Virus record (IMG/VR): IMGVR_UViG_3300032227_000993 | Source: a virus | Taxonomy: Duplodnaviria > Caudoviricetes | Direction: 5' to 3' (one strand) | DNA length: 64,000 nucleotides | Shown here: one piece after another, positions 4,977-49,479 of the stretch | How the letters are laid out: every line of letters begins with the position of its first letter | Position numbering within the stretch: the stretch's first letter is position 1 | Notes under the pieces: model-generated | Told to the model about the DNA's origin: nothing | Databases searched by the model: none | The model's input: the letters and a program-made list of their open reading frames with translations, nothing else | Position numbers and translations under genes: made by a program

Positions 4977-5896
4977 AAATAGACATAGCAGACTTGGATT
5001 GTATATATCTTTCCTATGACGAACCTAACAAAGAAGAAAACTGGGTAAAAATTAAGAACATGGTGCCTTGGGCTGTACGTGTTGACGGAGTCAAAGGAAG
5101 CGACGCCGCGCACAAGGCCGCCGCCGATGCTGCTTCAACAGATCGTTTTATTTTAATCGACGGCGACAATATCCCCGACGATAAGTTTTTTAATTTAACA
5201 TTGGATTTACAAGAACGCGATGTAGATTGTGTATTCCGTTGGAGAGCCAAAAATTACATCAACGGCCTCATGTACGGCAACGGAGGCTTGAGCTGTTGGA
5301 CCAAAGAATTTATTTACAGCATGAAGACACACGAAAATACAGATGGCTCTGCTGAAAATGATGTGGAATTTTGTTTTTATCCCAACTACATTGCCATGTA
5401 CGATTGTTATTCTACCACTTATCCCAACACTACACCTTTCCAGGCTTGGCGTGCCGGCTTCCGTGAAGGTGTTAAAATGTGTTTGAACAAAGGCACTCGA
5501 CCCACACTACAAGACTTTAAAGATCGTGTTCATCATCGTAATCTTGATCATCTTACTGTCTGGCAAAATGTAGGTCGTGATGTAGAAAATGGAATTTGGG
5601 CCATGCTTGGTGCTCGTATGGGCACCTACATGACAATGATTACTCCTGAGTGGGATTATCGACAAGTACAAAACTTTGACACACTACAAGACTTGTATGC
5701 CAGTATTGACGGACATGACCCTGAAATTATTGCCGCTCGTATCGCTGAAGATTTGTCTACCCAACTTGATTTGCCTATTACTATGATGTATGACAATGAA
5801 AGCAAGTTTTTCAAACACCATTATCGTAGCAACTGGCATAATCAAGGTGTGATGATTCGCGAGTTAGATGTCATCCGTAGTCAAGAAGGCTGGTAA
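4973..5896 (+). CDS. glycosyltransferase family 2-like protein
   Basis: YLSYDEP, LIDGDN DxD motif, YGNGGL, AWRAGFREGVK; similar to the C-terminus of 19711-21900. Confidence 0.6.
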   Translation: MKIDIADLDCIYLSYDEPNKEENWVKIKNMVPWAVRVDGVKGSDAAHKAAADAASTDRFILIDGDNIPDDKFFNLTLDLQERDVDCVFRWRAKNYINGLMYGNGGLSCWTKEFIYSMKTHENTDGSAENDVEFCFYPNYIAMYDCYSTTYPNTTPFQAWRAGFREGVKMCLNKGTRPTLQDFKDRVHHRNLDHLTVWQNVGRDVENGIWAMLGARMGTYMTMITPEWDYRQVQNFDTLQDLYASIDGHDPEIIAARIAEDLSTQLDLPITMMYDNESKFFKHHYRSNWHNQGVMIRELDVIRSQEGW

Positions 5897-7281
5897 TGAC
5901 AAAAAGTGTATTCCTAACAGCTGCTGAACAGATGAAAGAGGACTTAGGTCCTGCTCTTTGTCTTGCTAAGTGGAAACAAGTAAGTCTACACTTACCTACA
6001 GGACTCAACAACTCCTGCTACCATCCGCCACTACACCAAATACCCAAGGAACTGTTAGCTGACAATCCGTCAGCACTACACAATACACCGCACAAAAAAG
6101 AGCAACGCAAAATTATGCTCAAGCAAGAGCGACCAACAGAATGCAGCTATTGTTGGACACAAGAGGACATGGGCAATCTGTCCGACCGTCACTATCGCTC
6201 AGGTGAGCCATGGGCCGCCATGGACTTTGAAGCAATAAAAAACTCTACTGGAGATGAAAATGTTATACCTAGTTATGTGGAAGTTAATTTTAATCATGCT
6301 TGTAACTTATCTTGTAGCTATTGTAGCCCGCAATTTAGTTCATCATGGCAGGCAGAAGTCGATAAGCTGGGAGGTTTTCCTACCTCAACTGTTCATAATG
6401 ATCCTACTCATTTTGTTGGATCTCGTCGTCCTATTCCAGCTAGGGAAGAGAATCCTTACGTAGACGCATTTTGGGCCTGGTGGCCTGAACTGTATCCAAA
6501 ACTAAAACACTTCCGCATGACCGGAGGTGAGCCTATGCTAGACAAAAATACCTATCGAGTATTTGATTACGTGTTGGCACTACCTAAGAACGATTTACAT
6601 TTAAATGTAACCAGTAATTTTTCTGTAGAAGATCAACTATTTGAAAAGTATCTTGGTTATGTCAAGCGTTTATGCGATACACAGATAGAACACTTTATGC
6701 AGTATGTAAGCGTCGACTCAGGTATTCCTAGCCACGCCGAATACATACGCCACGGACTGACATATTCTACCATGATTACTTCTGTACACAAGTATTTAAG
6801 AGAAGTGCCTAATCGTAATAGTCTTACATTTATTATTACAATGAATAATTTAAGCGTATTAGGTTTACGTAAACAGCTAGAAGGAATATTACACTTACGT
6901 CAAACATACAGCAAAACATACCAACGTGTTTGGTTTGATACACCGCTACTACGCCAACCAGCTTGGCAAAGTATCCAACTACTACCACCTTCATACATAG
7001 CCATACTTGAGGAAACTGCTGACTGGATGGAGCAGCATTTAGAAACCGCAGAGGATCCACTACACGGATTTAAGGACTACGAAGTACAGCGCCTACGCCG
7101 TGACATAGATTGGGCCAAGGAAGGCAGTAATCTTGACCCGGACTATGTTAAACTACAAAAAGCAGATTTTTATCGTTTCTTTGCGGAACACGATCGCCGC
7201 CGCAACACAAATTTTCTAAATACCTTTCCTGAGATGGCAGCCTGGTGGACAGAATGTGAATATCATGCCAAACAACTTTGA
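5896..7281 (+). CDS. radical SAM protein with N-terminal twitch/SPASM-like domain
   Basis: N-term CLAKW..SCYH..CSYCW; core CNLSCSYC and TGGEP. Confidence 0.9.
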   Translation: MTKSVFLTAAEQMKEDLGPALCLAKWKQVSLHLPTGLNNSCYHPPLHQIPKELLADNPSALHNTPHKKEQRKIMLKQERPTECSYCWTQEDMGNLSDRHYRSGEPWAAMDFEAIKNSTGDENVIPSYVEVNFNHACNLSCSYCSPQFSSSWQAEVDKLGGFPTSTVHNDPTHFVGSRRPIPAREENPYVDAFWAWWPELYPKLKHFRMTGGEPMLDKNTYRVFDYVLALPKNDLHLNVTSNFSVEDQLFEKYLGYVKRLCDTQIEHFMQYVSVDSGIPSHAEYIRHGLTYSTMITSVHKYLREVPNRNSLTFIITMNNLSVLGLRKQLEGILHLRQTYSKTYQRVWFDTPLLRQPAWQSIQLLPPSYIAILEETADWMEQHLETAEDPLHGFKDYEVQRLRRDIDWAKEGSNLDPDYVKLQKADFYRFFAEHDRRRNTNFLNTFPEMAAWWTECEYHAKQL

Positions 7282-14500: not shown

Positions 14501-14589
14501 AAAATATTTACAAACGCATTGTACTTGAGATTAAGTATCGTCGCAAGTTAAAAGAACTGCGCAAGAAGGATCCTTTTATTTACAAATGA
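14488..14589 (+). CDS. small basic protein (33 aa, MSWLKNIY...KDPFIYK)
   Basis: Not in ORF track; fills the gap and its TGA overlaps the carbamoyltransferase ATG. Confidence 0.6.
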   Translation: MSWLKNIYKRIVLEIKYRRKLKELRKKDPFIYK

Positions 14590-16073
14590 AACATTATCTA
14601 GGTATTTCAGCTGGCTATCATGATGCCGCCGCTACTGTGATCAATAGTAACGGCGATATTCTCTTTGCTGGTCATAGTGAACGCTACAGTAAATTAAAAA
14701 ACGATAAAAATTTATGCGATAACTTACTATCTGAATTATGTGAGTGGCAATATGATACCGTGGCATTTTACGAACGTCCGTGGATGCATAATTTACAACA
14801 GTTGTATTCAGGACAACACAATGTAGGGCCATGGACCCGGCGTGGCACATTAAACAAACACCTAGGTACTTGGTATCAGACTCCAGCCAAGCACGAAGTC
14901 TGTTATCCTCATCACCTGTGTCACGCTGCCGCCGGATTTCAGACAAGTGTATTTGATCGAGCCACTGTAGTGGTAATAGATGCCATTGGCGAGTTTGATA
15001 CAATTTCAATTTATGGAGCAAAGTATGATAAAAAAGGTAAGGCAGTTTATAAAAAACTTTGGGGACAAAAATATCCACACTCAATCGGACTCCTTTATAG
15101 TGCAATTACTCAGCGCATTGGCTTACACCCGTTAGACGAAGAATATATTACCATGGGTATGAGCGCCTACGGCGATAAAACAGCGGCCAGTGTTATTATG
15201 GGTAATCATTTGATAGAAAATGCTAAAGAAATAAAATTTAAGCAAAATTTACACGCTGGTGTAGATAAAGATTTTATGTTTTTCACTACAAACGCAGATT
15301 TGGCCGCAGGAGTGCAAGCTGTTGCAGAAGAATTGATAAGTAATGTTATGATTAAAGCTCGTGAATTTGGCTGGAGCGATAATCTGGTGTATCAAGGCGG
15401 TGTTGCCTTAAACTGTTTAGCCAATAGAAATCTCGGTCGTTACTTTGAAAATATTTGGATCATGCCTTGCCCTGGCGATGCTGGCTCTAGTCTTGGAGCG
15501 GCTGCTCTTGCCTACGGCAAGCGCATCAACTTCACCAACGCTTATCTTGGTCACAACATTAGCGGAAAATATCCTGTTAACGCCTGTCTCGATCATTTAC
15601 TTACAGATAGAATCGTTGGAGTTGCTTCCGGTCGTGCTGAATTTGGGCCCCGAGCACTTGGGAACAGAAGTCTACTCGCAGACCCAAGAGGACCTGATAT
15701 AAAGGACCGTGTTAATGAAATCAAACGCAGACAAAAGTTTAGACCATTCGCGCCAGTCGTATTGGCAGAGCTCGCTGATGAATTTTTTGATATGCCTGCT
15801 GGCTTTCGTAATAGTCCTTACATGCAGTCAGTCGCTAAGTGTAAGCATCCTGAATTGTATCCTGCTATTGTTCATCACGACGGTACTAGTAGAGTACAGA
15901 CTGTACCAGATAACGGTTCGGGCATTAGGCAGTTGCTTGAAAAATGGTATGTCCTGACAGGATGTCCTATGCTGTTAAACACTAGTCTTAATATCCGCGG
16001 CGAACCCATGGTCAATGATCGAGCAGATGCTGATCGTTTTGAAAAATTATACAATGTGAAAGTGTGTTCGTGA
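14586..16073 (+). CDS. carbamoyltransferase (NodU/CmcH family)
   Basis: YHDAAA, HHLCHAA, VIDAIGE, GGVALNC, EFGPRALGNRS, RQKFRPFAP, LNTSLN. Confidence 0.92.
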   Translation: MKHYLGISAGYHDAAATVINSNGDILFAGHSERYSKLKNDKNLCDNLLSELCEWQYDTVAFYERPWMHNLQQLYSGQHNVGPWTRRGTLNKHLGTWYQTPAKHEVCYPHHLCHAAAGFQTSVFDRATVVVIDAIGEFDTISIYGAKYDKKGKAVYKKLWGQKYPHSIGLLYSAITQRIGLHPLDEEYITMGMSAYGDKTAASVIMGNHLIENAKEIKFKQNLHAGVDKDFMFFTTNADLAAGVQAVAEELISNVMIKAREFGWSDNLVYQGGVALNCLANRNLGRYFENIWIMPCPGDAGSSLGAAALAYGKRINFTNAYLGHNISGKYPVNACLDHLLTDRIVGVASGRAEFGPRALGNRSLLADPRGPDIKDRVNEIKRRQKFRPFAPVVLAELADEFFDMPAGFRNSPYMQSVAKCKHPELYPAIVHHDGTSRVQTVPDNGSGIRQLLEKWYVLTGCPMLLNTSLNIRGEPMVNDRADADRFEKLYNVKVCS

Positions 16074-34634: not shown

Positions 34635-34710
34635 TGGTGCCCTCACCATGATTCGAACACGGGACCCCCTGATTACAAATCAGGTGCTCTACCGACTGAG
34701 CTATAAGGGC
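34635..34710 (-). tRNA. tRNA-Thr(TGT)
   Basis: Full cloverleaf, CCTGA-TTTGTAA-TCAGG, encoded CCA. Confidence 0.95.
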
Positions 34711-34718
34711 AGTATTTG

Positions 34719-34934
34719 TTATTCTGCGACTACTGCTACTTCTGGTGCTCGGTAAGTAGGACGAGCTTTTAATTCTGTAATACGACGTTGAATTTTTGCC
34801 ACGTGTTTCTTGCGAGCATTGGTCACTAATTTTTCTAATTGAGCCACATTCAACGGACCCAAACGCTCTTTACCATTCTTGGTACGCATTGGATCTGCTT
34901 TACGAGTTTTTTGATTTCCACCTTTGGTTGCCAT
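34719..34934 (-). CDS. small basic protein
   Basis: K/R-rich 71 aa with RBS. Confidence 0.65.
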   Translation of the reverse strand: MATKGGNQKTRKADPMRTKNGKERLGPLNVAQLEKLVTNARKKHVAKIQRRITELKARPTYRAPEVAVVAE

Positions 34935-34957
34935 AATTGTTCCTTTGTTATTTTTAC

Positions 34958-36097
34958 TTATTCATCAATGCTGCTAGGCTTAAAAATTTCGTCGTAATTC
35001 AATCCACGTATTTGATCAAGCGTATCTATGTAATTTCTAAATTGTACATAGTGTTGGTGATTGAATTTGATATTGTTTGTAATGTTCTTGATAAATGTTT
35101 TGGCCTTAGAATCTAAATTGGAGGTCTCGGCCCACTGAACAAATAGATCAAAATCTTTTGGTGGAACACTATCTAAATTTAACCAAGGCTGACCTTGATT
35201 GGTATTAAAATGTATTGCAAAGTTATTATCGCGAGCAAACTCTACCAACTCAGGCAAGGCATACACACTAGTGTGTTGTATGGTATGATGTAACTGTATT
35301 TTTGTTATTGGTAAATGAGATTTTAATTTGACAAAATTATCTAAAATATTTTGCCACTTTGCTGGATATCGCACATAATAATTTTTATCTCCTGTTCCTT
35401 CTAGACTGATATTTAAAAATATTTGCCTGAATTTTTTGAGTACATCAATCAACGCAGTCGGTAAGCTACTAAAATTAGTATTAAACGATAGGTTTACTAG
35501 ATTTTTGTTTTTGATATCTTCTAACACACGTATTGTAGAAGGGTTAATAAATGGCTCTCCGCCAGTCATTCTAAAAGATATTGTGTTTTTTAATATGTCC
35601 TGACTAAATTGATAAAATTCATCAGTTTCGCAATATTCAGGGTGTTGGTAACTTATCTCCATGCCTAACTTTTTAAATTTTTCTTGGTTAGCCAATCGCT
35701 CCGCAGATATTAAACTACTTGACCATGGGCTACACATAATACATTTAAGATTGCACACACTAGAAATAAGATATTGGACATGATAAATTGGATTATTTTT
35801 ATCCACAGCCTGGGCAGCACGTTGTCCATAGGTCTCATTGCTTTGTTGACGTAAACTTTTTAAGCCTAAATCTTCCTCACGCCAACAAACCATACATCTG
35901 TCGTGTCTGATTCCGGCTTCGGCATCATCATGTATTCGTTGCTGGACTTCCTTTTGATATCGATCAAATTCAGTAAATTTAATATGTTGCCACTTGGATC
36001 TATCATATTGACAACATGGATCTAGGCTACCATCTAAATCAACTTTGATACCGTGGTAAGTCAAGGCACAGCGGAGAGGGTCGTTGACATCAATCAT
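34958..36097 (-). CDS. radical SAM protein, N-terminal twitch type
   Basis: CALTY..PCCQ..CMVCW; CNLKCIMC; TGGEP. Confidence 0.9.
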   Translation of the reverse strand: MIDVNDPLRCALTYHGIKVDLDGSLDPCCQYDRSKWQHIKFTEFDRYQKEVQQRIHDDAEAGIRHDRCMVCWREEDLGLKSLRQQSNETYGQRAAQAVDKNNPIYHVQYLISSVCNLKCIMCSPWSSSLISAERLANQEKFKKLGMEISYQHPEYCETDEFYQFSQDILKNTISFRMTGGEPFINPSTIRVLEDIKNKNLVNLSFNTNFSSLPTALIDVLKKFRQIFLNISLEGTGDKNYYVRYPAKWQNILDNFVKLKSHLPITKIQLHHTIQHTSVYALPELVEFARDNNFAIHFNTNQGQPWLNLDSVPPKDFDLFVQWAETSNLDSKAKTFIKNITNNIKFNHQHYVQFRNYIDTLDQIRGLNYDEIFKPSSIDE

Positions 36098-36824
36098 AAT
36101 AACCAGGGAATAAATTTACTAAATTAAATTGACTGTAGTCAACAGGAATAACGCCTTGTTTATTGTTTACAACAATATCTTTGATCAAGTCTTTGACTTG
36201 TTCGTGTACACCGTCGCTTAAATGACCAGTGCGATCCATAATGTAAGGGGCAACTCCTACACGTTCGCCTTCACCTAAACTTAATGTTTCAAACGCAAAG
36301 TCAACCAGTGTACCTCCGCTAAAGTATTTCTTAGCCAACTCCTGCGAGCTTGTTGTGTTGGGTAAAAAGATAAATTTAGTATTGGGATACTGTCTAGGTA
36401 ATTCTAAACACCACTTGACCATGAGTTCAAATTCAAACTCATGCTCATCTTTGCTGTACAGATATCTATAGTACTTGTCGGCAGCGTCTTGTATTTCAGC
36501 TTCTTTGGCAGCCAGCTCACCTAAATCTCTGCCTTCAATTTTGGCTGTAATAACTCGCTCAGTTAAATTGTCAGTGTACAATCTATGAGGCCAAGTAAAA
36601 GTAAAAATGGCAACATCAAAATTAATTTTTGCTGACCACCGCTTCCATTCAGCAATGGCATAGTATTGACTGGTGCCACCTAGTCCCGAACAGATAAATG
36701 GAGCGGCTAGATCGTCAAGCAATCGATGCGCCCAAATTTTTCTACCCAATGGTATATTGGGATTTTCACGCCTATGCCACACAGTATCAATGTAACTGTC
36801 GCCAAAAAACCCTATCTTCATTGC
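36090..36824 (-). CDS. SGNH/GDSL hydrolase-like protein
   Basis: IGFFGDSY block I, GLGGTS, C-term GHLS; likely start MKIGFFG. Confidence 0.55.
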   Translation of the reverse strand, partial: AMKIGFFGDSYIDTVWHRRENPNIPLGRKIWAHRLLDDLAAPFICSGLGGTSQYYAIAEWKRWSAKINFDVAIFTFTWPHRLYTDNLTERVITAKIEGRDLGELAAKEAEIQDAADKYYRYLYSKDEHEFEFELMVKWCLELPRQYPNTKFIFLPNTTSSQELAKKYFSGGTLVDFAFETLSLGEGERVGVAPYIMDRTGHLSDGVHEQVKDLIKDIVVNNKQGVIPVDYSQFNLVNLFPGYYD

Positions 36825-37450
36825 GGAACGGTGTAGTGGATTTGTAGTAGCTCGCGCATTTTGTATTGTGAATGCTTGTTCCAATTAGAAGTACAATGTA
36901 GTTGAATAGTTTCAAATAATGCTGCGGCACCGGCTTCGTAGGTAAAAATACCATCCAAGTTTAAATAGTCAGCCATGTACTTTCCATTGTTGGGATCTTG
37001 TGTATGCTCCAGGTCTTCAGTTTCACTGATGTTAGAAATCTTAGTAGCAGTTTCTGGATTCCAAGTCATAAAATATTCTTCAACCATCTTGGCATTGCTG
37101 GCTGATTTTTCTTTGAATACGATGGTTTTAAATTCAGGAATAGTATCTAACGCAATCACATACGTCCATGTTGGATGAGGAGTCTGCATTGAGTAGTCGT
37201 CAATATGGATAAGGTGCGCACGGCTTTGGCGCTGTAGTGCGCACCAGATGTCTGTGGCATTAGGATGTACAGCACGAACAATGTCTTCAATAATTTTAAA
37301 TTCTTTATCTTGTGGCACAACTTGTAATCTGTGATCGATAACGCCATCGTCTACTTCAAAATTAACGTAGACACGGTCTTTTTTATCTTCCCAAAATTGT
37401 CTAAAATCAACAATTTGTTCTGGTGTAACAAGTTTTTTAAATATTTGCAT
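36818..37450 (-). CDS. 2OG-Fe(II) oxygenase-like protein
   Basis: IHIDD ... QLHCT ... R; weak. Confidence 0.45.
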   Translation of the reverse strand: MQIFKKLVTPEQIVDFRQFWEDKKDRVYVNFEVDDGVIDHRLQVVPQDKEFKIIEDIVRAVHPNATDIWCALQRQSRAHLIHIDDYSMQTPHPTWTYVIALDTIPEFKTIVFKEKSASNAKMVEEYFMTWNPETATKISNISETEDLEHTQDPNNGKYMADYLNLDGIFTYEAGAAALFETIQLHCTSNWNKHSQYKMRELLQIHYTVPQ

Positions 37451-37505
37451 GTTGTTCTCTTTGTGTTATTATTACTTATTATTTTCAACAGTCAACTTTA
37501 AAAAA

Positions 37506-38510
37506 TTAACTTGAAAATTGTTCCATTACCTTATCAAATTTACCACATTGTTTAGCACACTCTTTTATGCCTGTTGTACTCCAAGCTGCTTCTACCTGAT
37601 CAAAATATCCGCTGTTAAAAATTTCTTCTAAGGTTTGATTATTAAGATTTGGCCAATACTTAATGGTATCCAAGTATTGTGTTTTGTTATGATGAGCGCG
37701 AATGTAAGTCATATCTAACCAACAACATGGAGTTACAGTACCGTCAGCACCGATGTAGACTTGATTGTCATTTTTTGCCTTGCAATTAATAACAGGTAAC
37801 TGTTGTTCTTCGGCCTTGATTACTTTACTTATCATATTGGTGCTTTTAATAGTCGGCTGTATGATGTGGACAGTTTTGCTGGTAGTGCTAGTAGTGCTAG
37901 AAGTGCTAGTGGTAACAGGTAATTTGTCAATGGTAAATCGATTTGTATTTTTTGTAAAAAATTCAGCGAATCCCATTTGTTTGCTGAGTTCTCTACAAGT
38001 GTCTGCTTGGTGTTCGTTATGTTGAAATACTAACATATCCCATCTAGCACGACCTCCAGCCTTGATAAATTCTTTAGCATTGTTAATAATTTTATTCCAT
38101 TCAGTGTTTATTCTGTACAAATGATGGGTATCCTCTAGCCCGTCAATGGCAAATACAACATCTACCCGCAAGTTGGCAAGTTCTACAAACCACTCGGGTG
38201 TTCGTGCGCTACCGTTGGTGTACAGCTCTAATGTCATGTTATTATTATGACTACGCAGATATTTAAAAATTTCCATAGTATCTTTGGCTACAATGGCGTC
38301 ACCAAGATTACCGCACATTTTTAAATGATTCAATTGTTTTACAAATTCCACTGAGAACCAAGTCTCAAACTGGTTTAATGTAATTTCAGTCAAGTTTACT
38401 AGGGGTGAAAGCAAACCGTTGGGTTCGTAACGACCGCACATAGGGCATTTGGCTTGGCACTTAGATGTAATTTCAAGATGTACCGATCTTAATTGATTAA
38501 TTTTGTACAT
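37506..38510 (-). CDS. radical SAM protein with C-terminal SPASM-like domain
   Basis: CQAKCPMC, CGNLGD; C-term C..GTVTPCCW..C..QC. Confidence 0.9.
   Translation of the reverse strand: MYKINQLRSVHLEITSKCQAKCPMCGRYEPNGLLSPLVNLTEITLNQFETWFSVEFVKQLNHLKMCGNLGDAIVAKDTMEIFKYLRSHNNNMTLELYTNGSARTPEWFVELANLRVDVVFAIDGLEDTHHLYRINTEWNKIINNAKEFIKAGGRARWDMLVFQHNEHQADTCRELSKQMGFAEFFTKNTNRFTIDKLPVTTSTSSTTSTTSKTVHIIQPTIKSTNMISKVIKAEEQQLPVINCKAKNDNQVYIGADGTVTPCCWLDMTYIRAHHNKTQYLDTIKYWPNLNNQTLEEIFNSGYFDQVEAAWSTTGIKECAKQCGKFDKVMEQFSS
37878..37913. repeat. 4 x 9-bp degenerate tandem repeat
   Basis: gctggtagt/gctagtagt/gctagaagt/gctagtggt, encoding a Thr/Ser run. Confidence 0.7.
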
Positions 38511-38547
38511 CTGTTATTTATTTTGACCTGAAGCCAGGATTATTGAT

Positions 38548-38637
38548 TGGCGGAGAGTGTGAGATTCGAACTCACGATAGTGTTACCACTATGACGGTTT
38601 AGTAGACCGTTGGTTTCAGCCGCTCACCCAACTCTCC
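38548..38637 (-). tRNA. tRNA-Ser(ACT), class II
   Basis: GGAGAGT/ACTCTCC, G73, long arm ATAGTG-GTAA-CACTAT, anticodon arm ACGGT-CTACTAA-ACCGT. Confidence 0.92.
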
Positions 38638-38654
38638 AGTTACTACAATAATTC

Positions 38655-38729
38655 TGGCTCCCCAACCAGGACTTGAACCTGGGACCAACAGATTAACAGT
38701 CTGCTGCTCTACCGACTGAGCTATCGGGG
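38655..38729 (-). tRNA. tRNA-Asn(GTT)
   Basis: CTGTTAA loop, G73, CCA; acceptor stem has a 1-nt bulge. Confidence 0.88.
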
Positions 38730-38762
38730 AATAACCTGTGCTACGCTTGCATGGGTATTGTG

Positions 38763-39089
38763 TTACTTATCGCGACGCTCGTGTCGATGACTGATTTTGT
38801 AAGTTTTGCCAAACAACTCGTAGCCTACGAGACCTTGTTCGACTTCCTGTAGTGCTGTCACACGATTTCCGTATTTACGTTCAATCAAAGTAGCATCGCC
38901 GCGATTTAATTCGCGAACACGATTGGCCACAATCAATACTGCGTCATAGCGTGTGCCAATCATCTCTGCGGCACGTTGTCCTGTGCGCCCTTCGATACTG
39001 TTACTGTCATAAAATTTATCAAGTTTGTAACGCAATACAGTATTGCCATCGCTTTGAATTTGTGTTACTACTCTTGTGGTATCAATCAT
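38763..39089 (-). CDS. rpoZ: RNA polymerase omega subunit-like protein
   Basis: IGTRYDAVLIVANRVREL..GD..VTALQEVEQG matches the RpoZ pattern (NRFDLVLVAARRARQ..IALREIEEG). Confidence 0.75.
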   Translation of the reverse strand: MIDTTRVVTQIQSDGNTVLRYKLDKFYDSNSIEGRTGQRAAEMIGTRYDAVLIVANRVRELNRGDATLIERKYGNRVTALQEVEQGLVGYELFGKTYKISHRHERRDK

Positions 39090-39448: not shown

Positions 39449-39477
39449 ATTGTACAGTAATATTCATACTATGTCAA
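39449..39477 (-). promoter_or_regulatory. sigma70 promoter
   Basis: TTGACA-N17-TACAAT. Confidence 0.8.
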
Positions 39478-39483
39478 CAACTC

Positions 39484-39560
39484 TGGTACCCCTGGAAGGA
39501 TTCGGACCTCCATATCCCGCCTTCTTGGAGCGGTGACTTTACCAGTTTGTCTACAGGGGT
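39484..39560 (-). tRNA. atypical tRNA-Leu(AAG), short variable arm
   Basis: ACCCCTG/CAGGGGT-A-CCA, anticodon arm CCGCT-CCAAGAA-GGCGG, T-loop TCCGAAT. Confidence 0.75.
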
Positions 39561-40202: not shown

Positions 40203-40231
40203 ATTGTACTACAATTAGAATTTATTGTCAA
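40203..40231 (-). promoter_or_regulatory. sigma70 promoter
   Basis: TTGACA-N17-TACAAT. Confidence 0.8.
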
Positions 40232-42360
40232 ATCGGCATTTGACTGATCAACTGGGCAAATTTTTCATAGTAGTCTTTGCGCGGTAATAAACCTCGTACC
40301 TGTTGTTGACTTTGTAAAGATTGTGGATTTGATTTATTACGGTCAGTTGTATTGGAATACCACTGAACAAAGGGCATTTTAAAATCTAAACACAAGGCTT
40401 GATTATTCCACATACCCGGACTGCTTTGAGTTTTCTCACCGTTGTTGTTGTAGTAAAAGTGTTTATGGAAAAACTCAACATCAAGCAGTAAATCGCAACG
40501 GTCAATAACCAGCGATTTAATTATGATATTTTTATCACGTAAAATATTGCCATCAACATCGACTTCTGTATCGTTTGTACCTTTGTTGGTCATCTGTAGA
40601 CTCAAGCAATTTAATTTATGAAGATCAATTACAGGAACTTCAAACTCTATTAAATGCTCACCTTGATCAAGGCAGCGTTCAACTATGGTAGTGTCGTTAA
40701 TTTTTACCACCAAGTTGGGATTAGTTATGCAAGCATTTGCCTCTACACCAAGTTGAACAGTCAACGATTTTTTGCTGTTTAGTATAGATTCAACCACTTG
40801 GTCAACATCAGCAATGGGATCAAACTGTGAAGTGTCGCCCTGTGCGTTGATATCAAAAAATTTATTAAGTCCGTCTAAATTGGCACGTGCTGATTCGTAA
40901 ACAGATTGTAATAAACTAGTTTCTTCAAGTTCAACACTCATATCCAACTCATCACATAACTTACTTAAAATTAAACGTCGCTGTAGTCTTACCTTGCTGG
41001 TGTTACCTCTATTGTTTCTGGCAATCCATCCAAACATACCTAAATCGTGTTGTTGATGAATATTGATATTGTAATCTGCTGGCGTGCCTGGGAGCAAATT
41101 GTAGGGTATTCCCAATAGCATACCGCTGATAGTTCCTGATCTAATGTAGGGGATGAGTTTAATGATCATGTCGCAATGATCCATAAAGTCTTCGTGACGC
41201 TCACTCCAGTGGCCTACAAAACTTAACAAGGTACACGAAATACCGTAGCGTTTGAAATAGTCTAGCTCAAAGAACAAAGCTTCGACTGTAGTTTTTTTAT
41301 CCATGTGGTCCAATACATAATTACTGCCGCTCTCGGCACCTATGGTCAAACCATGTCCTCCGCTTTTAACGATTGAGTCGTAGTATTGATCGATATCAGG
41401 CATATTCTGCATTTCTCGACAAATATATTGCCCAGTCCATGTGATGGGAATTGGAGCCACAGCATTATGTTGGATAAGTCTATTGATAAATTGTTTAAAA
41501 ATTTTCAAGCCGCCGTTACTCAAACTATCGGCCATTACAAATTTATTAATTTTAAATTTTTCTTGTAACGCAATTAGTTCTTCGGCAAATGCTACGCCGT
41601 CCTTGAACCGATACCGACCAAACTGTTTTTTAATATCGCAAAAATCACAGTCGCGTACACATCCGGTACTACCAATTACATCAAGCGACCGAACATTGTC
41701 GGGCCACTGGTATCTATCAAAATCATAATCGCTGTAGTCGGGCCAAGTGATATCTAAGTTGTCTCTTTTATTTTGTTTAGATTCGCTGGTGCCAGTAGCT
41801 AAAAACTCTAGCAGTGCATCTTCGGCATCGCCTATCACATAGTGTTTTACAAGGCCGCGATCTTTGAGTATGTAGACTAGGTCTGTTTTTACTTCAGAAC
41901 CTGTTATGTCTAATAAACTAATAGCTGTACTGGCTGGAAAGCAAGAGATGCCGCGTCCGCCAAGTACTATTCGATCAGTCATGCCTAATTTTTCAAATCG
42001 TCTTAATAAATCTATAGCAATTCGATGAGTGTAAACACTAAACACACTAAACCCAATGTATCTAGCATTGGCACTGATTACAGTATCAATAATGTAATCG
42101 TAAAATTCTTCTATCTGATTAATTTCGTCTGAATCAATCTCGGCACCTGGCACAATAAAATAATTTGATAGTCTGCTGGAAACATCAACGTTTCCTTTAC
42201 AACATACATGGAAAAAGTCACCAGAAAAATCAAAACATCTAGCACGGTACCCTGCTTCTTCGGCAATACCTTTTAAAATAGCTGGAGCCGAATAGATCCG
42301 ATCCATGCCTAGCGGTGGTAGCGAGCAGAATACTATGTCATAGTTGTAGTTATTATTCAT
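40228..42360 (-). CDS. B12-binding-type radical SAM protein with C-terminal extension
   Basis: N-term IGFSVF..VLGG..IGDAE; GCVRDCDFC; IGAESGS. Confidence 0.85.
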   Translation of the reverse strand: MNNNYNYDIVFCSLPPLGMDRIYSAPAILKGIAEEAGYRARCFDFSGDFFHVCCKGNVDVSSRLSNYFIVPGAEIDSDEINQIEEFYDYIIDTVISANARYIGFSVFSVYTHRIAIDLLRRFEKLGMTDRIVLGGRGISCFPASTAISLLDITGSEVKTDLVYILKDRGLVKHYVIGDAEDALLEFLATGTSESKQNKRDNLDITWPDYSDYDFDRYQWPDNVRSLDVIGSTGCVRDCDFCDIKKQFGRYRFKDGVAFAEELIALQEKFKINKFVMADSLSNGGLKIFKQFINRLIQHNAVAPIPITWTGQYICREMQNMPDIDQYYDSIVKSGGHGLTIGAESGSNYVLDHMDKKTTVEALFFELDYFKRYGISCTLLSFVGHWSERHEDFMDHCDMIIKLIPYIRSGTISGMLLGIPYNLLPGTPADYNINIHQQHDLGMFGWIARNNRGNTSKVRLQRRLILSKLCDELDMSVELEETSLLQSVYESARANLDGLNKFFDINAQGDTSQFDPIADVDQVVESILNSKKSLTVQLGVEANACITNPNLVVKINDTTIVERCLDQGEHLIEFEVPVIDLHKLNCLSLQMTNKGTNDTEVDVDGNILRDKNIIIKSLVIDRCDLLLDVEFFHKHFYYNNNGEKTQSSPGMWNNQALCLDFKMPFVQWYSNTTDRNKSNPQSLQSQQQVRGLLPRKDYYEKFAQLISQMPI

Positions 42361-44245: not shown

Positions 44246-44329
44246 TGGTGGAGAATACTGGGATCGAACCAGTCATGCCGTAGGCGCCGGATTTACAGTC
44301 CAGTGCATCACCATTGATGCTTCTTCTCC
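44246..44329 (-). tRNA. tRNA-Tyr(GTA)
   Basis: CTGTAAA loop, long variable arm, CCA. Confidence 0.95.
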
Positions 44330-44767: not shown

Positions 44768-44803
44768 GAATAATAAACAAATACACACTACTATTCAAAC
44801 GCC
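44761..44803 (-). promoter_or_regulatory. antiterminator hairpin
   Basis: GGCGTTTGAATA pairs with TATTCAAAAGCC (11/12), overlapping the terminator 5' arm. Confidence 0.65.
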
Positions 44804-44892
44804 TTGACTCCTAGTTCTACGCCGCAACCATTGGCCCACACCCCAATTTGATTAGGAAGTATTGTTAAGAGTGTATATATTAAATGTTTCAT
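44791..44892 (-). CDS. putative leader peptide (33 aa)
   Basis: MKHLIYTLLTILPNQIGVWANGCGVELGVKAFE between a consensus promoter and a terminator. Confidence 0.6.
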   Translation of the reverse strand: MKHLIYTLLTILPNQIGVWANGCGVELGVKAFE

Positions 44893-46874: not shown

Positions 46875-47230
46875 GGTAGTTTCTGTTACGAGGCATTTCC
46901 TGCCCTAAGCAGTGATTAAACTGCTAAAGATTGGCGTTGTGCTGAACGAGCAGAGAACTTAACGTTCTTACCTGAAACAGTTACTTCGCCTGTAGATGTT
47001 TTTGCATTTACAAAGTTTGCTTGATTTACAGTCATCGCCTACTGTGTTGCCTCTTTCGCTATCTCGCCATGTCGAAACCGGTCGGACCCAACAAAGCATA
47101 CTGTGTGGATCTTACGATGGGCCCTCGAAGGGTTGTCCCCACACTCCAGTAGACAATATGCTTTGGTGGATCCGGGGAGAATCGAACTCCCGTCCACAGC
47201 GCCTTCACTACGAAGGAATTACAACAATTC
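46875..47230 (-). ncRNA. ssrA: circularly permuted (two-piece) tmRNA
   Basis: Acceptor piece ending GGGAGTTCGATTCTCCC-CGGATCC-A-CCA (3' end 47164) precedes the coding piece starting GGGTCCG-ACCGGTTTCGAC (47089); G3:U70; tag frame 47005-46916. Confidence 0.9.
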
Positions 47231-47239
47231 TTTTAAAAC

Positions 47240-47479
47240 TTACAGAACGATTTCAGCACTTGCTGGATTGTACGAGGTAATGTATGTGATCCAAGCATCA
47301 GCAGCATTTGTATCTTTCCAAGTACGAGCAACAGTATATTGTGTTTGACCAAAAGTTCTAGTAGCAGCACCGTCGGTGTCGCCATTAGCAACTAATTGTG
47401 CAACATATTCTGTGATAGCAGTACTTTCGGCAGTTGTTGGAGTTCCGTTATTCCAAGTTACTAGTGTGTTAGTAGTCAT
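47240..47479 (-). CDS. hypothetical protein
   Basis: 79-aa T/A-rich ORF with AAGGA RBS. Confidence 0.65.
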   Translation of the reverse strand: MTTNTLVTWNNGTPTTAESTAITEYVAQLVANGDTDGAATRTFGQTQYTVARTWKDTNAADAWITYITSYNPASAEIVL

Positions 47480-48246: not shown

Positions 48247-49479
48247 TTATTGGACGTCTAGCAACCAAGGCTCTGCTTCGGTGATAGCCGCAAAATATTC
48301 AGGCATGACTTCTTCAAACTTTTGGCTGCGAATCTTATCAAGAGCTTTAAGTTCGTACCAAAATTTAGGAAAATAAATGTTGCATCCAGCGATGTTGTTT
48401 TTTAACAAGGAGATAACGTTATCCAACTTTAATTTTGTCTGTGGAGCAGAGTTCTCAAATCTTTCAATCAAGGCATTTTTGACTGGTTGAGGCAAATGTC
48501 TAAAATCATATTGTTCAGGCGTGTACACAACATTAATTCCAAACCCAATAGAATGATTTGACAGACCTTCTACTATTGTATCTAAATACCAAATATTAAA
48601 AATACTAACAGTGATACAAATGTAAATAGAAACATTTTTATGTTCTTTGGCAAAGGCAATGTACTTGTCTAAGTTTTCAAATAGCTTGTCGGCCTTGACC
48701 CCGTAACGGACATAACTCAATTGCGCCGGGTCAACTGCGTCAATACTGATGCCAATTCTGGCTGATTTAAATTTAGGCAAACAATCAATGTAATCTTGAT
48801 TCCAAATAGTACAGTTGGTGTGTATCTGTACATCTGTGTTCTTGGCGCCACCTTCGTCGGCCACTTTAATCATACGGTCCCACATGGCAGGAGCAAGTAA
48901 GGGCTCGCCGCCGTAGATGTCAAGGAATACCAAACCTGGCAACCAACGCTCAAAGGTATCCCACACAGGTAAATTATCACGGCCAAAGCCATCGCGAATA
49001 GTTTCAAACTGACTTGTGTATTCTTTAAATGATCCTTCAAAGGTACCTTGTACTTGTTCTAACTTGTAAAAGTCTTGATACAAGCCAGTCGATGTGGCTG
49101 GTTGACAAGTGCGGCAACCCAAGTTGCACACGTTACTTGGTTTTAAAATCAACACATGAGGTTGATCCTCTGGCATATCCAGCGTGGCCAACTCGGCATT
49201 GAATTTTTGTCTGGTAGAAACTACTCCTGCCGCTTCATCATTCCAGCAGGCATGACAACTTGGAATCCGTTCACCAGCATCAAGTTTGGTGATAATTTCA
49301 TTGCGTGAAGGACTGTCCCACATATCTTGAAGTCCAGTATCGTACAAATACATTGCTTCGCCGTTGACAGTATTTCCGAACGATGCATTGTTTTTGTTAC
49401 ATACACAACAGTCGCCTTTATTTTGTACTGCCATTGATACGTGTGAGAGTTTGCAATAGGTTGCTGATTTTGTTGTCAT
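48247..49479 (-). CDS. radical SAM protein, N-terminal twitch type
   Basis: YCKLS..CCVC..CHACW; CNLGCRTC; YGGEP. Confidence 0.9.
   Translation of the reverse strand: MTTKSATYCKLSHVSMAVQNKGDCCVCNKNNASFGNTVNGEAMYLYDTGLQDMWDSPSRNEIITKLDAGERIPSCHACWNDEAAGVVSTRQKFNAELATLDMPEDQPHVLILKPSNVCNLGCRTCQPATSTGLYQDFYKLEQVQGTFEGSFKEYTSQFETIRDGFGRDNLPVWDTFERWLPGLVFLDIYGGEPLLAPAMWDRMIKVADEGGAKNTDVQIHTNCTIWNQDYIDCLPKFKSARIGISIDAVDPAQLSYVRYGVKADKLFENLDKYIAFAKEHKNVSIYICITVSIFNIWYLDTIVEGLSNHSIGFGINVVYTPEQYDFRHLPQPVKNALIERFENSAPQTKLKLDNVISLLKNNIAGCNIYFPKFWYELKALDKIRSQKFEEVMPEYFAAITEAEPWLLDVQ

Follow-up and report, generated by a model that had tools for sequence, protein, structure and literature searches.

The locus examined here raises the question of why a phage should carry a serine tRNA gene with the anticodon ACU, i.e., with adenosine at wobble position 34 (A34) in the AGN codon box, which is split between serine and arginine. 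The gene lies on the minus strand at positions 38548..38637 of the window, as the whole 64,000-nucleotide stretch of DNA that was analyzed is called here, and its source is an uncultured freshwater jumbo phage. It was called as Ser(act) by ARAGORN, among a total of 12 RNA genes in the window, and matched the Rfam tRNA model (RF00005) with 54.3 bits (E = 2e-09; gathering score, 29). Read from the minus strand, the 90-nt gene comprises an acceptor stem GGAGAGU/ACUCUCC, a D stem of 3 bp, an anticodon stem ACGGU/ACCGU closed by the loop C32-U33-A34-C35-U36-A37-A38, a variable arm with a 6-bp stem and a GUAA loop, and a T arm GUGAG-UUCGAAU-CUCAC that is followed by the discriminator G (G73) and an encoded CCA. 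The anticodon A34-C35-U36 occupies positions 38601..38603, the complement of T38603 being A34. The class II cloverleaf is exactly the minimum-free-energy fold of the sequence (-29.5 kcal/mol, z = -2.5), and the stem-loop word GGTCTACTAAACC occurred once in the window compared with an expectation of 0.06. A73 is the discriminator of bacterial tRNA-Leu and tRNA-Tyr and G73 that of tRNA-Ser; the gene thus has the features of a class II seryl tRNA, i.e., a long variable arm with its own stem-loop, a 3-bp D stem and G73. These findings confirmed that the gene is a genuine class II tRNA-Ser whose A34 falls in the split AGN box, and the description of it in the initial annotation as a perfect class II tRNA-Ser with the loop CT-ACT-AA was borne out by the ARAGORN call, the Rfam score and the predicted fold alike.

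Sequencing error, with GCT in the reads, had been named as one outcome that would undo this description, but it was excluded as the source of A34. DNA contigs from a second sample (X2) and from an unrelated freshwater study (X5) spanned the anticodon and differed from the window elsewhere in the tRNA, the DNA contigs from X1, X2 and X5 showed no alternative letter at 38601-38603, and diverged homologues in many other assemblies retained ACT. A metatranscriptome (RNA run X6) contained a 45-nt piece that corresponded to the 3' half of the tRNA with 4 differences; the anticodon is outside this piece, which probably derives from another tRNA. An exact 50-nt word taken from the tRNA was absent from IMG/VR, and megablast revealed no close relative of the window region among cultured phages.

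IMG/VR contains a large family of uncultured jumbo phages of which the window is a member, and within this family Ser(act) recurred near homologues of the neighboring phosphoesterase gene (loci L082, L104/105, L110, L118, L121/125 and L155). Together with the gene in the window, these Ser(act) genes represent six distinct sequences with compensating stem differences, and the gene of genome G005 is a seventh. Locus L155 is part of G001, a complete 344-kb genome with terminal repeats, the tRNA set of which includes Ser(TGA), Ser(GCT), Ser(ACT), Arg(TCT) and Arg(TCG). Since Ser(GCT) and Ser(ACT) occur together in G001, the latter is in that phage an additional isoacceptor and not a replacement, and the retention of GCT beside ACT suggests that AGC may not be covered by ACT. 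In a tree of the phosphoesterase gene, eight of nine ACT loci fell in one well-supported clade, with the window elsewhere on a long branch. A tree of the tRNA genes themselves (89 columns, poorly resolved) required four or more switches of anticodon label, and there are ACT genes that adjoin a TGA gene on the same contig. Repeated anticodon shifts or gene conversion would fit both trees, of which that of the tRNA is too weak to order the events; a single origin of Ser(ACT), also considered, was not backed by this poorly resolved tree with its four or more label changes.

The distribution of such genes was determined from pattern searches of IMG/VR. At least 120 matches were obtained with a first pattern, defined by the loop CTACTAA, the T loop GTTCGAATC and the end CGCCA, and at least 120 with a second pattern that was the T32 version of the first. 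All listed loci but one for the first pattern, and 119 of the 120 listed matches for the second, were called as Ser(act) by ARAGORN, so that both patterns and the family loci together yielded at least 249 Ser(ACT) genes with at least 147 distinct sequences. Constancy of the anticodon loop, T loop and 3' end among these matches was imposed by the search patterns, and G73 was present in 146 of the 147 distinct sequences among the matches listed. Contigs with listed Ser(ACT) genes had GC contents of 26-54%, all but two of them falling within 26-46%. In an alignment of 60 diverse members, pair-keeping changes on both sides were noted for 23 of 24 stem pairs, and the variable arm covaried. Thus, Ser(ACT) is shown to be conserved under structural selection in many phages. 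A search of 596 Gb of prokaryote genomes with the first pattern yielded 32 raw and 25 real matches, many of which were in phage-like tRNA arrays of gut metagenome-assembled genomes or in Polynucleobacter islands, with one in a CPR genome. The anticodon, which had been described as rare, is accordingly rare in cells but not in phages.

Matches in Polynucleobacter (L430, L412, L435, L437, L438, L441 and L443) were distributed over several strains, with up to three copies per strain. Most of these copies were nearly identical to the gene of viral contig L264, the copy in P. brandtiae (L438) being a different sequence, and some had stem mismatches of the kind expected at attachment sites. At L430, Ser(ACT) adjoins genes for AIPR, GIY-YIG and P63C proteins. 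Near viral Ser(ACT) genes (loci L164-L411), ARAGORN also called other tRNAs with A34 in split boxes, namely two Asn(ATT), three Asp(ATC), one Cys(ACA), three Phe(AAA) and one His(ATG), and, among the same viral loci, one Ser(AGA) with a family-box anticodon.

The same gene was found in cultured jumbo phages, the database records of which label it merely as "tRNA-Ser". ARAGORN-checked examples are those of Salmonella phage Munch (MK268344.1:266654-266744), Xanthomonas phage XaC1 (OR258281.1:305983-306070; 83% identical to the gene in the window) and Erwinia phage Hallingskeid (PQ464590.1:114573-114663), and matches of 97.8% to the Hallingskeid gene were noted in phages 7t3, SE_PL, PHA46 and fENko-Kae01. 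The genes of the cultured phages share with that of the window the class II serine body, the loop CUACUAA, the encoded CCA, the setting in a jumbo-phage tRNA set and a downstream tRNA-Thr(UGU). They differ from it in that genes of the Hallingskeid and Munch type have A73 as opposed to G73, and in that the cultured carriers infect Enterobacteria or Xanthomonas whereas the phage of the window is from freshwater. Munch, with 12 tRNAs, and XaC1, with 8, both lack Ser(GCT), and the companions of Ser(ACT) in these phages, including Arg(TCT), read A/U-ending codons.

Codon counts in the window, a check that the initial annotation had named, identified AGT as the commonest serine codon (391, or 20.8 per thousand, versus 195 for AGC) at a GC content of 41%, and the corresponding AGT:AGC ratios were 202:51 in Munch and 84:17 in XaC1. 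The suggestion that the tRNA matches the U-ending codon use of an AT-rich phage was therefore correct as regards the bias itself, but the bias was not specific to carriers, the AGU fraction being equal (0.71 versus 0.69, p = 0.23) in ACT carriers and relatives with GCT only; no extra AGU enrichment in the former over the latter was found. Because relatives with GCT only have the same bias, codon matching leaves the choice between ACT and GCT unexplained. Codon use thus accounts for the carrying of an AGY reader but not for which of the two anticodons, ACT or GCT, is found in a given lineage.

The possibility that the tRNA reflects an altered genetic code was evaluated by mapping codons of the window onto tblastn alignments with relatives. 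AGA codons of the window were aligned with Arg in 63% and with Lys in 15% of cases, as were CGN codons, and relatives often had CGN at the same positions, while AGT codons were aligned with Ser in 41% of cases, a value similar to those for AGC and TCN. Reassignment of AGA/AGG to serine was rejected on these grounds; the genetic code is standard and AGA encodes arginine.

An intact, structurally selected gene that is widespread in phages with a standard code, and that in the window accompanies AGU as the top serine codon, is probably best explained as a functional extra seryl isoacceptor of the phage, with an unmodified A34 that would read AGU by Watson-Crick pairing. Seryl-tRNA synthetase recognizes the long variable arm and G73 and ignores the anticodon; because the enzyme is blind to the anticodon, charging of tRNA-Ser(ACU) with serine by the synthetase of the host is expected. 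An unmodified A34 would then pair with U3 in Watson-Crick geometry, which would make the tRNA a nearly dedicated AGU reader, a supplement to the host tRNA-Ser(GCU), whose reading of AGU depends on a G:U wobble. Since AGU is the top serine codon of the phage, tRNA-Ser(ACU) can be regarded as part of the usual phage kit for A/U-ending codons. Expression, charging, the unmodified state of A34 and AGU-only reading are inferred. Among the closest known tRNAs is the standard AGY reader, tRNA-Ser(GCU), as encoded, for example, by a sister phage (L086:4709-4798), which has the same class II form, G73, codon box and A37 after U36 and also an acceptor stem (GGAGAGU/ACUCUCC) identical to that of the tRNA-Ser(ACU) of the window. 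The two differ at position 34, which is G in the former and A in the latter, a difference that predicts reading of AGU only instead of AGC and AGU.

Results of decoding experiments with ACU tRNAs are limited to those engineered in E. coli (PMC11066159; bioRxiv 10.64898/2026.05.15.725136), which were AGU-specific, lacked inosine at position 34 (I34) and were not harmful. These tRNAs have the same anticodon as the phage gene and, in one study, the same 7-nt loop (PMC11066159), but they were built on the Tyr body of an archaeon or derived by mutation from a serine gene of E. coli, whereas the phage genes are natural and kept by selection. In the study with the CUACUAA loop, the ACU anticodon was without inosine modification, and reading was 9.4% for AGU, below detection for AGC and AGA and 0.36% for AGG (PMC11066159); these values are for E. 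coli and a partly foreign tRNA body, and TadA of the phage host could be broader in specificity.

Among the alternatives to an unmodified A34, deamination by host TadA or by an unrecognized phage enzyme, with the resulting ICU anticodon reading AGU, AGC and, weakly, the arginine codon AGA, is unlikely. The known I34 system closest to it is tRNA-Arg(ACG) with TadA, the substrate loop of which (CUACGAA) shares A34-C35 and is otherwise identical to CUACUAA except at position 36, where G in tRNA-Arg(ACG) is replaced by U in the tRNA-Ser of the window; the G36 of I34-type loops is therefore absent. The resemblance speaks for deamination, as does the presence in the phage family of Leu(AAG), a tRNA also modified by some bacterial TadA enzymes, alongside Ser(ACT). 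Against it, in addition to the E. coli result with the identical loop, the T32 loop UUACUAA was as common as the C32 loop among the listed phage Ser(ACT) genes (at least 120 matches with each pattern). Because the T32 loop is equally common, imitation of the Arg loop is not a conserved property, and the idea that C32 is retained to copy the loop of tRNA-Arg(ACG) was rejected. The retention of Ser(GCT) beside Ser(ACT) in G001 also argues against an inosine-containing AGY reader, and AGA was not avoided, with 179 codons in the window and AGA plus AGG making up 0.34 of arginine codons in ACT loci versus 0.39 in loci with GCT only. TadA was not detected at cut-off in three complete carrier genomes (G001, Munch and XaC1), in which weak matches of 17-26 bits compared with a cut-off of 150. 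Of the deaminases that are encoded by carriers, a 139-aa protein of G001 is ComEB-like, while a divergent 218-aa protein with a deaminase fold, a point in favor of modification, is encoded by two Ser(ACT) carriers, G001 (L291:1423-2079) and G005 (L290). This protein contains an HAE motif followed by PC-x9-C and has a weak RibD-like match (18 bits) and no solved relative; homologues of the 139-aa and 218-aa proteins were absent from the window. A version in which, during infection, a broad host TadA or an unrecognized phage enzyme turns A34 into inosine or some other modified base, such that AGU, AGC and a set fraction of AGA codons are read, is improbable. If true, it would amount to programmed low-level Arg-to-Ser substitution and to the first I34 tRNA in a split box other than that of Ile. 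The controlled mistranslation envisaged in the initial annotation found no support, given that AGA in the window aligns with Arg and Lys as CGN does and that the ACU tRNA in E. coli lacked inosine and read AGA below detection (PMC11066159).

Evasion of host nucleases that target Ser-GCT had also been envisaged. Thus, Ser(ACT) might serve as a defense-proof substitute that a host nuclease or other tRNA-targeting defense recognizing G34 of Ser(GCU) could not cut, with the consequence that AGY decoding would survive infection. Loop changes by which phage tRNAs evade anticodon nucleases have been documented (PMC10264068), Ser(GCT) is missing from the Ser(ACT) carriers Munch and XaC1, and some other selective force could be at work, given that AGU bias alone does not tell carriers of ACT from those of GCT. 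This explanation is nonetheless quite doubtful, as no known nuclease that targets tRNA-Ser(GCU) was found in the literature and Ser(gct) is the serine tRNA that escapes the known VapC nucleases (PMC10264068). In addition, an AGU-only reader would leave AGC, which accounts for a third of AGY codons in the window, unrescued, and no feature of the window ties the tRNA to a counter-defense gene, the neighboring radical SAM/SPASM gene being without tRNAs in 60 homologous loci scanned. A mainly non-decoding role, e.g., as a site where integration or recombination takes place, as a primer or as the origin of regulatory fragments, is more improbable still; the nearly identical Ser(ACT) genes in Polynucleobacter islands beside AIPR, GIY-YIG and P63C genes, some with attachment-site-like stem mismatches, would agree with such a role, but the jumbo phage genes are within ordinary tRNA arrays and keep all tRNA features including G73 and CCA, and no integrase was seen among the window ORFs scanned. 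Finally, an ANN anticodon is one point mutation away from GNN or UNN, several label changes are needed in the tRNA tree and some ACT genes stand beside a TGA gene on the same contig, all of which could be expected if the gene had arisen from an ordinary serine tRNA by a G34A (or U34A) mutation and were now neutral or decaying, or if it were an assembly error, in either case without a function of its own. This view was effectively refuted by conservation, i.e., by the intact cloverleaves of all 147 distinct sequences among the genes listed, by compensation in 23 of 24 pairs, by the clustering of eight of nine ACT loci in one supported phosphoesterase clade and by the occurrence of Ser(ACT) in independent assemblies as well as cultured phages.

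Encoded A34 that has been retained over evolution in AT-rich genomes is also known from Leu(AAG) of Lactobacillales and Thr(AGU) of Mollicutes. These tRNAs belong to family boxes, in which loose wobble is harmless to the amino acid, whereas ACU belongs to a split box shared with Arg, and split-box ANN genes in bacteria have been described as sporadic. Ser(ACU) is thus an A34 tRNA of a split codon box that has been retained in nature, and the class is already visible in public records. A tRNA-Ser(ACU) is listed for chlorovirus ATCV-1 in the table of a 2016 review (PMC4810235). No studies treating phage tRNA-Ser(ACT) genes were found in the literature. Contrary to the statement of a 2021 review that phage tRNAs lack the same "prohibited" ANN genes as those of bacteria (PMC8007984), hundreds of phage contigs, as well as cultured jumbo phages of Salmonella, Erwinia and Xanthomonas, carry an ANN tRNA of a split box that selection has maintained. 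These phages provide a natural system with tractable hosts in which to address decoding by unmodified A34, its cost and the reason for its avoidance by cells but not by phages. For annotation, serine genes with the ACT anticodon on phage contigs should not be dismissed as errors.

A tRNA-Asn(GUU) gene (38655..38730, minus strand; ARAGORN; Rfam 70.5 bits) is located 17 nt upstream of tRNA-Ser, and the two are probably part of one common precursor, judging from their spacing only. Directly upstream of this pair is an ORF of 108 aa that contains an Rpb6/omega domain of RNA polymerase (38763-39089, minus strand; PF01192, 34.9 bits). A consensus scan identified a candidate sigma-70-like promoter (TTGACA-17-TACAAT, 39449..39477, minus strand; 11/12 consensus match) upstream of the Rpb6-like ORF, tRNA-Asn and tRNA-Ser, which is weak because three such sites were found compared with 2.9 expected from shuffles. 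The second A34 tRNA of the array is a tRNA-Leu(AAG) (39484..39560, minus strand; ARAGORN; Rfam 50.6 bits). Leu(AAG) accompanies Ser(ACU) in L082, L110, L121/L125 and G005 as well, and leucine codons of the window include 255 CTT versus 78 CTC. Thr(AGT) was noted in other relatives (L102, L128/129/139 and L142). Downstream of tRNA-Ser on the same strand is a tRNA-Thr(UGU) gene (34635..34710, minus strand; ARAGORN), and the order Ser(ACU) followed by Thr(UGU) on one strand was common to the window (34635-38637), Munch (L444), XaC1 (L284), G001 (L162) and G005 (L163). That enterobacterial, Xanthomonas and freshwater jumbo phages have this order in common suggests that the pair may be old in the lineage.

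Elsewhere in the window, a tRNA with the anticodon GUA (Tyr) and the loop CUGUAAA (44249-44329, minus strand), which was missed by ARAGORN, was detected with Rfam (37.6 bits); it has an extended variable region and one acceptor mismatch. The upstream leader ORF at 44791-44892 was devoid of serine codons. Radical SAM genes are interspersed with the tRNA array (5896-7281, 34958-36097, 37506-38510, 40228-42360 and 48247-49479), one of them with a SPASM domain; a conserved tie between tRNA-Ser and the downstream radical SAM/SPASM gene was considered and rejected on the basis of the same 60 tRNA-free loci. A carbamoyltransferase of the NodU/TobZ type is encoded at 14586-16073. A permuted two-piece tmRNA of the betaproteobacterial type (46973-47269, minus strand) scored 112.9 bits with the beta_tmRNA model and 107.5 bits with the tmRNA_permuted model, and tmRNA genes with the tags ANAANDEVFALAA and ANASNDEVFALAA are present in relatives L085 and L101 as well. 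This beta-type tmRNA, together with the copies of Ser(ACT) in Polynucleobacter, hints at Polynucleobacter-like hosts. In related jumbo phages, tRNAs with a CTA anticodon, labeled "Pyl" by ARAGORN, were noted at L091:6834-6907 and six other loci; their resemblance to amber suppressors suggests that TAG may be read through or recoded in some relatives.
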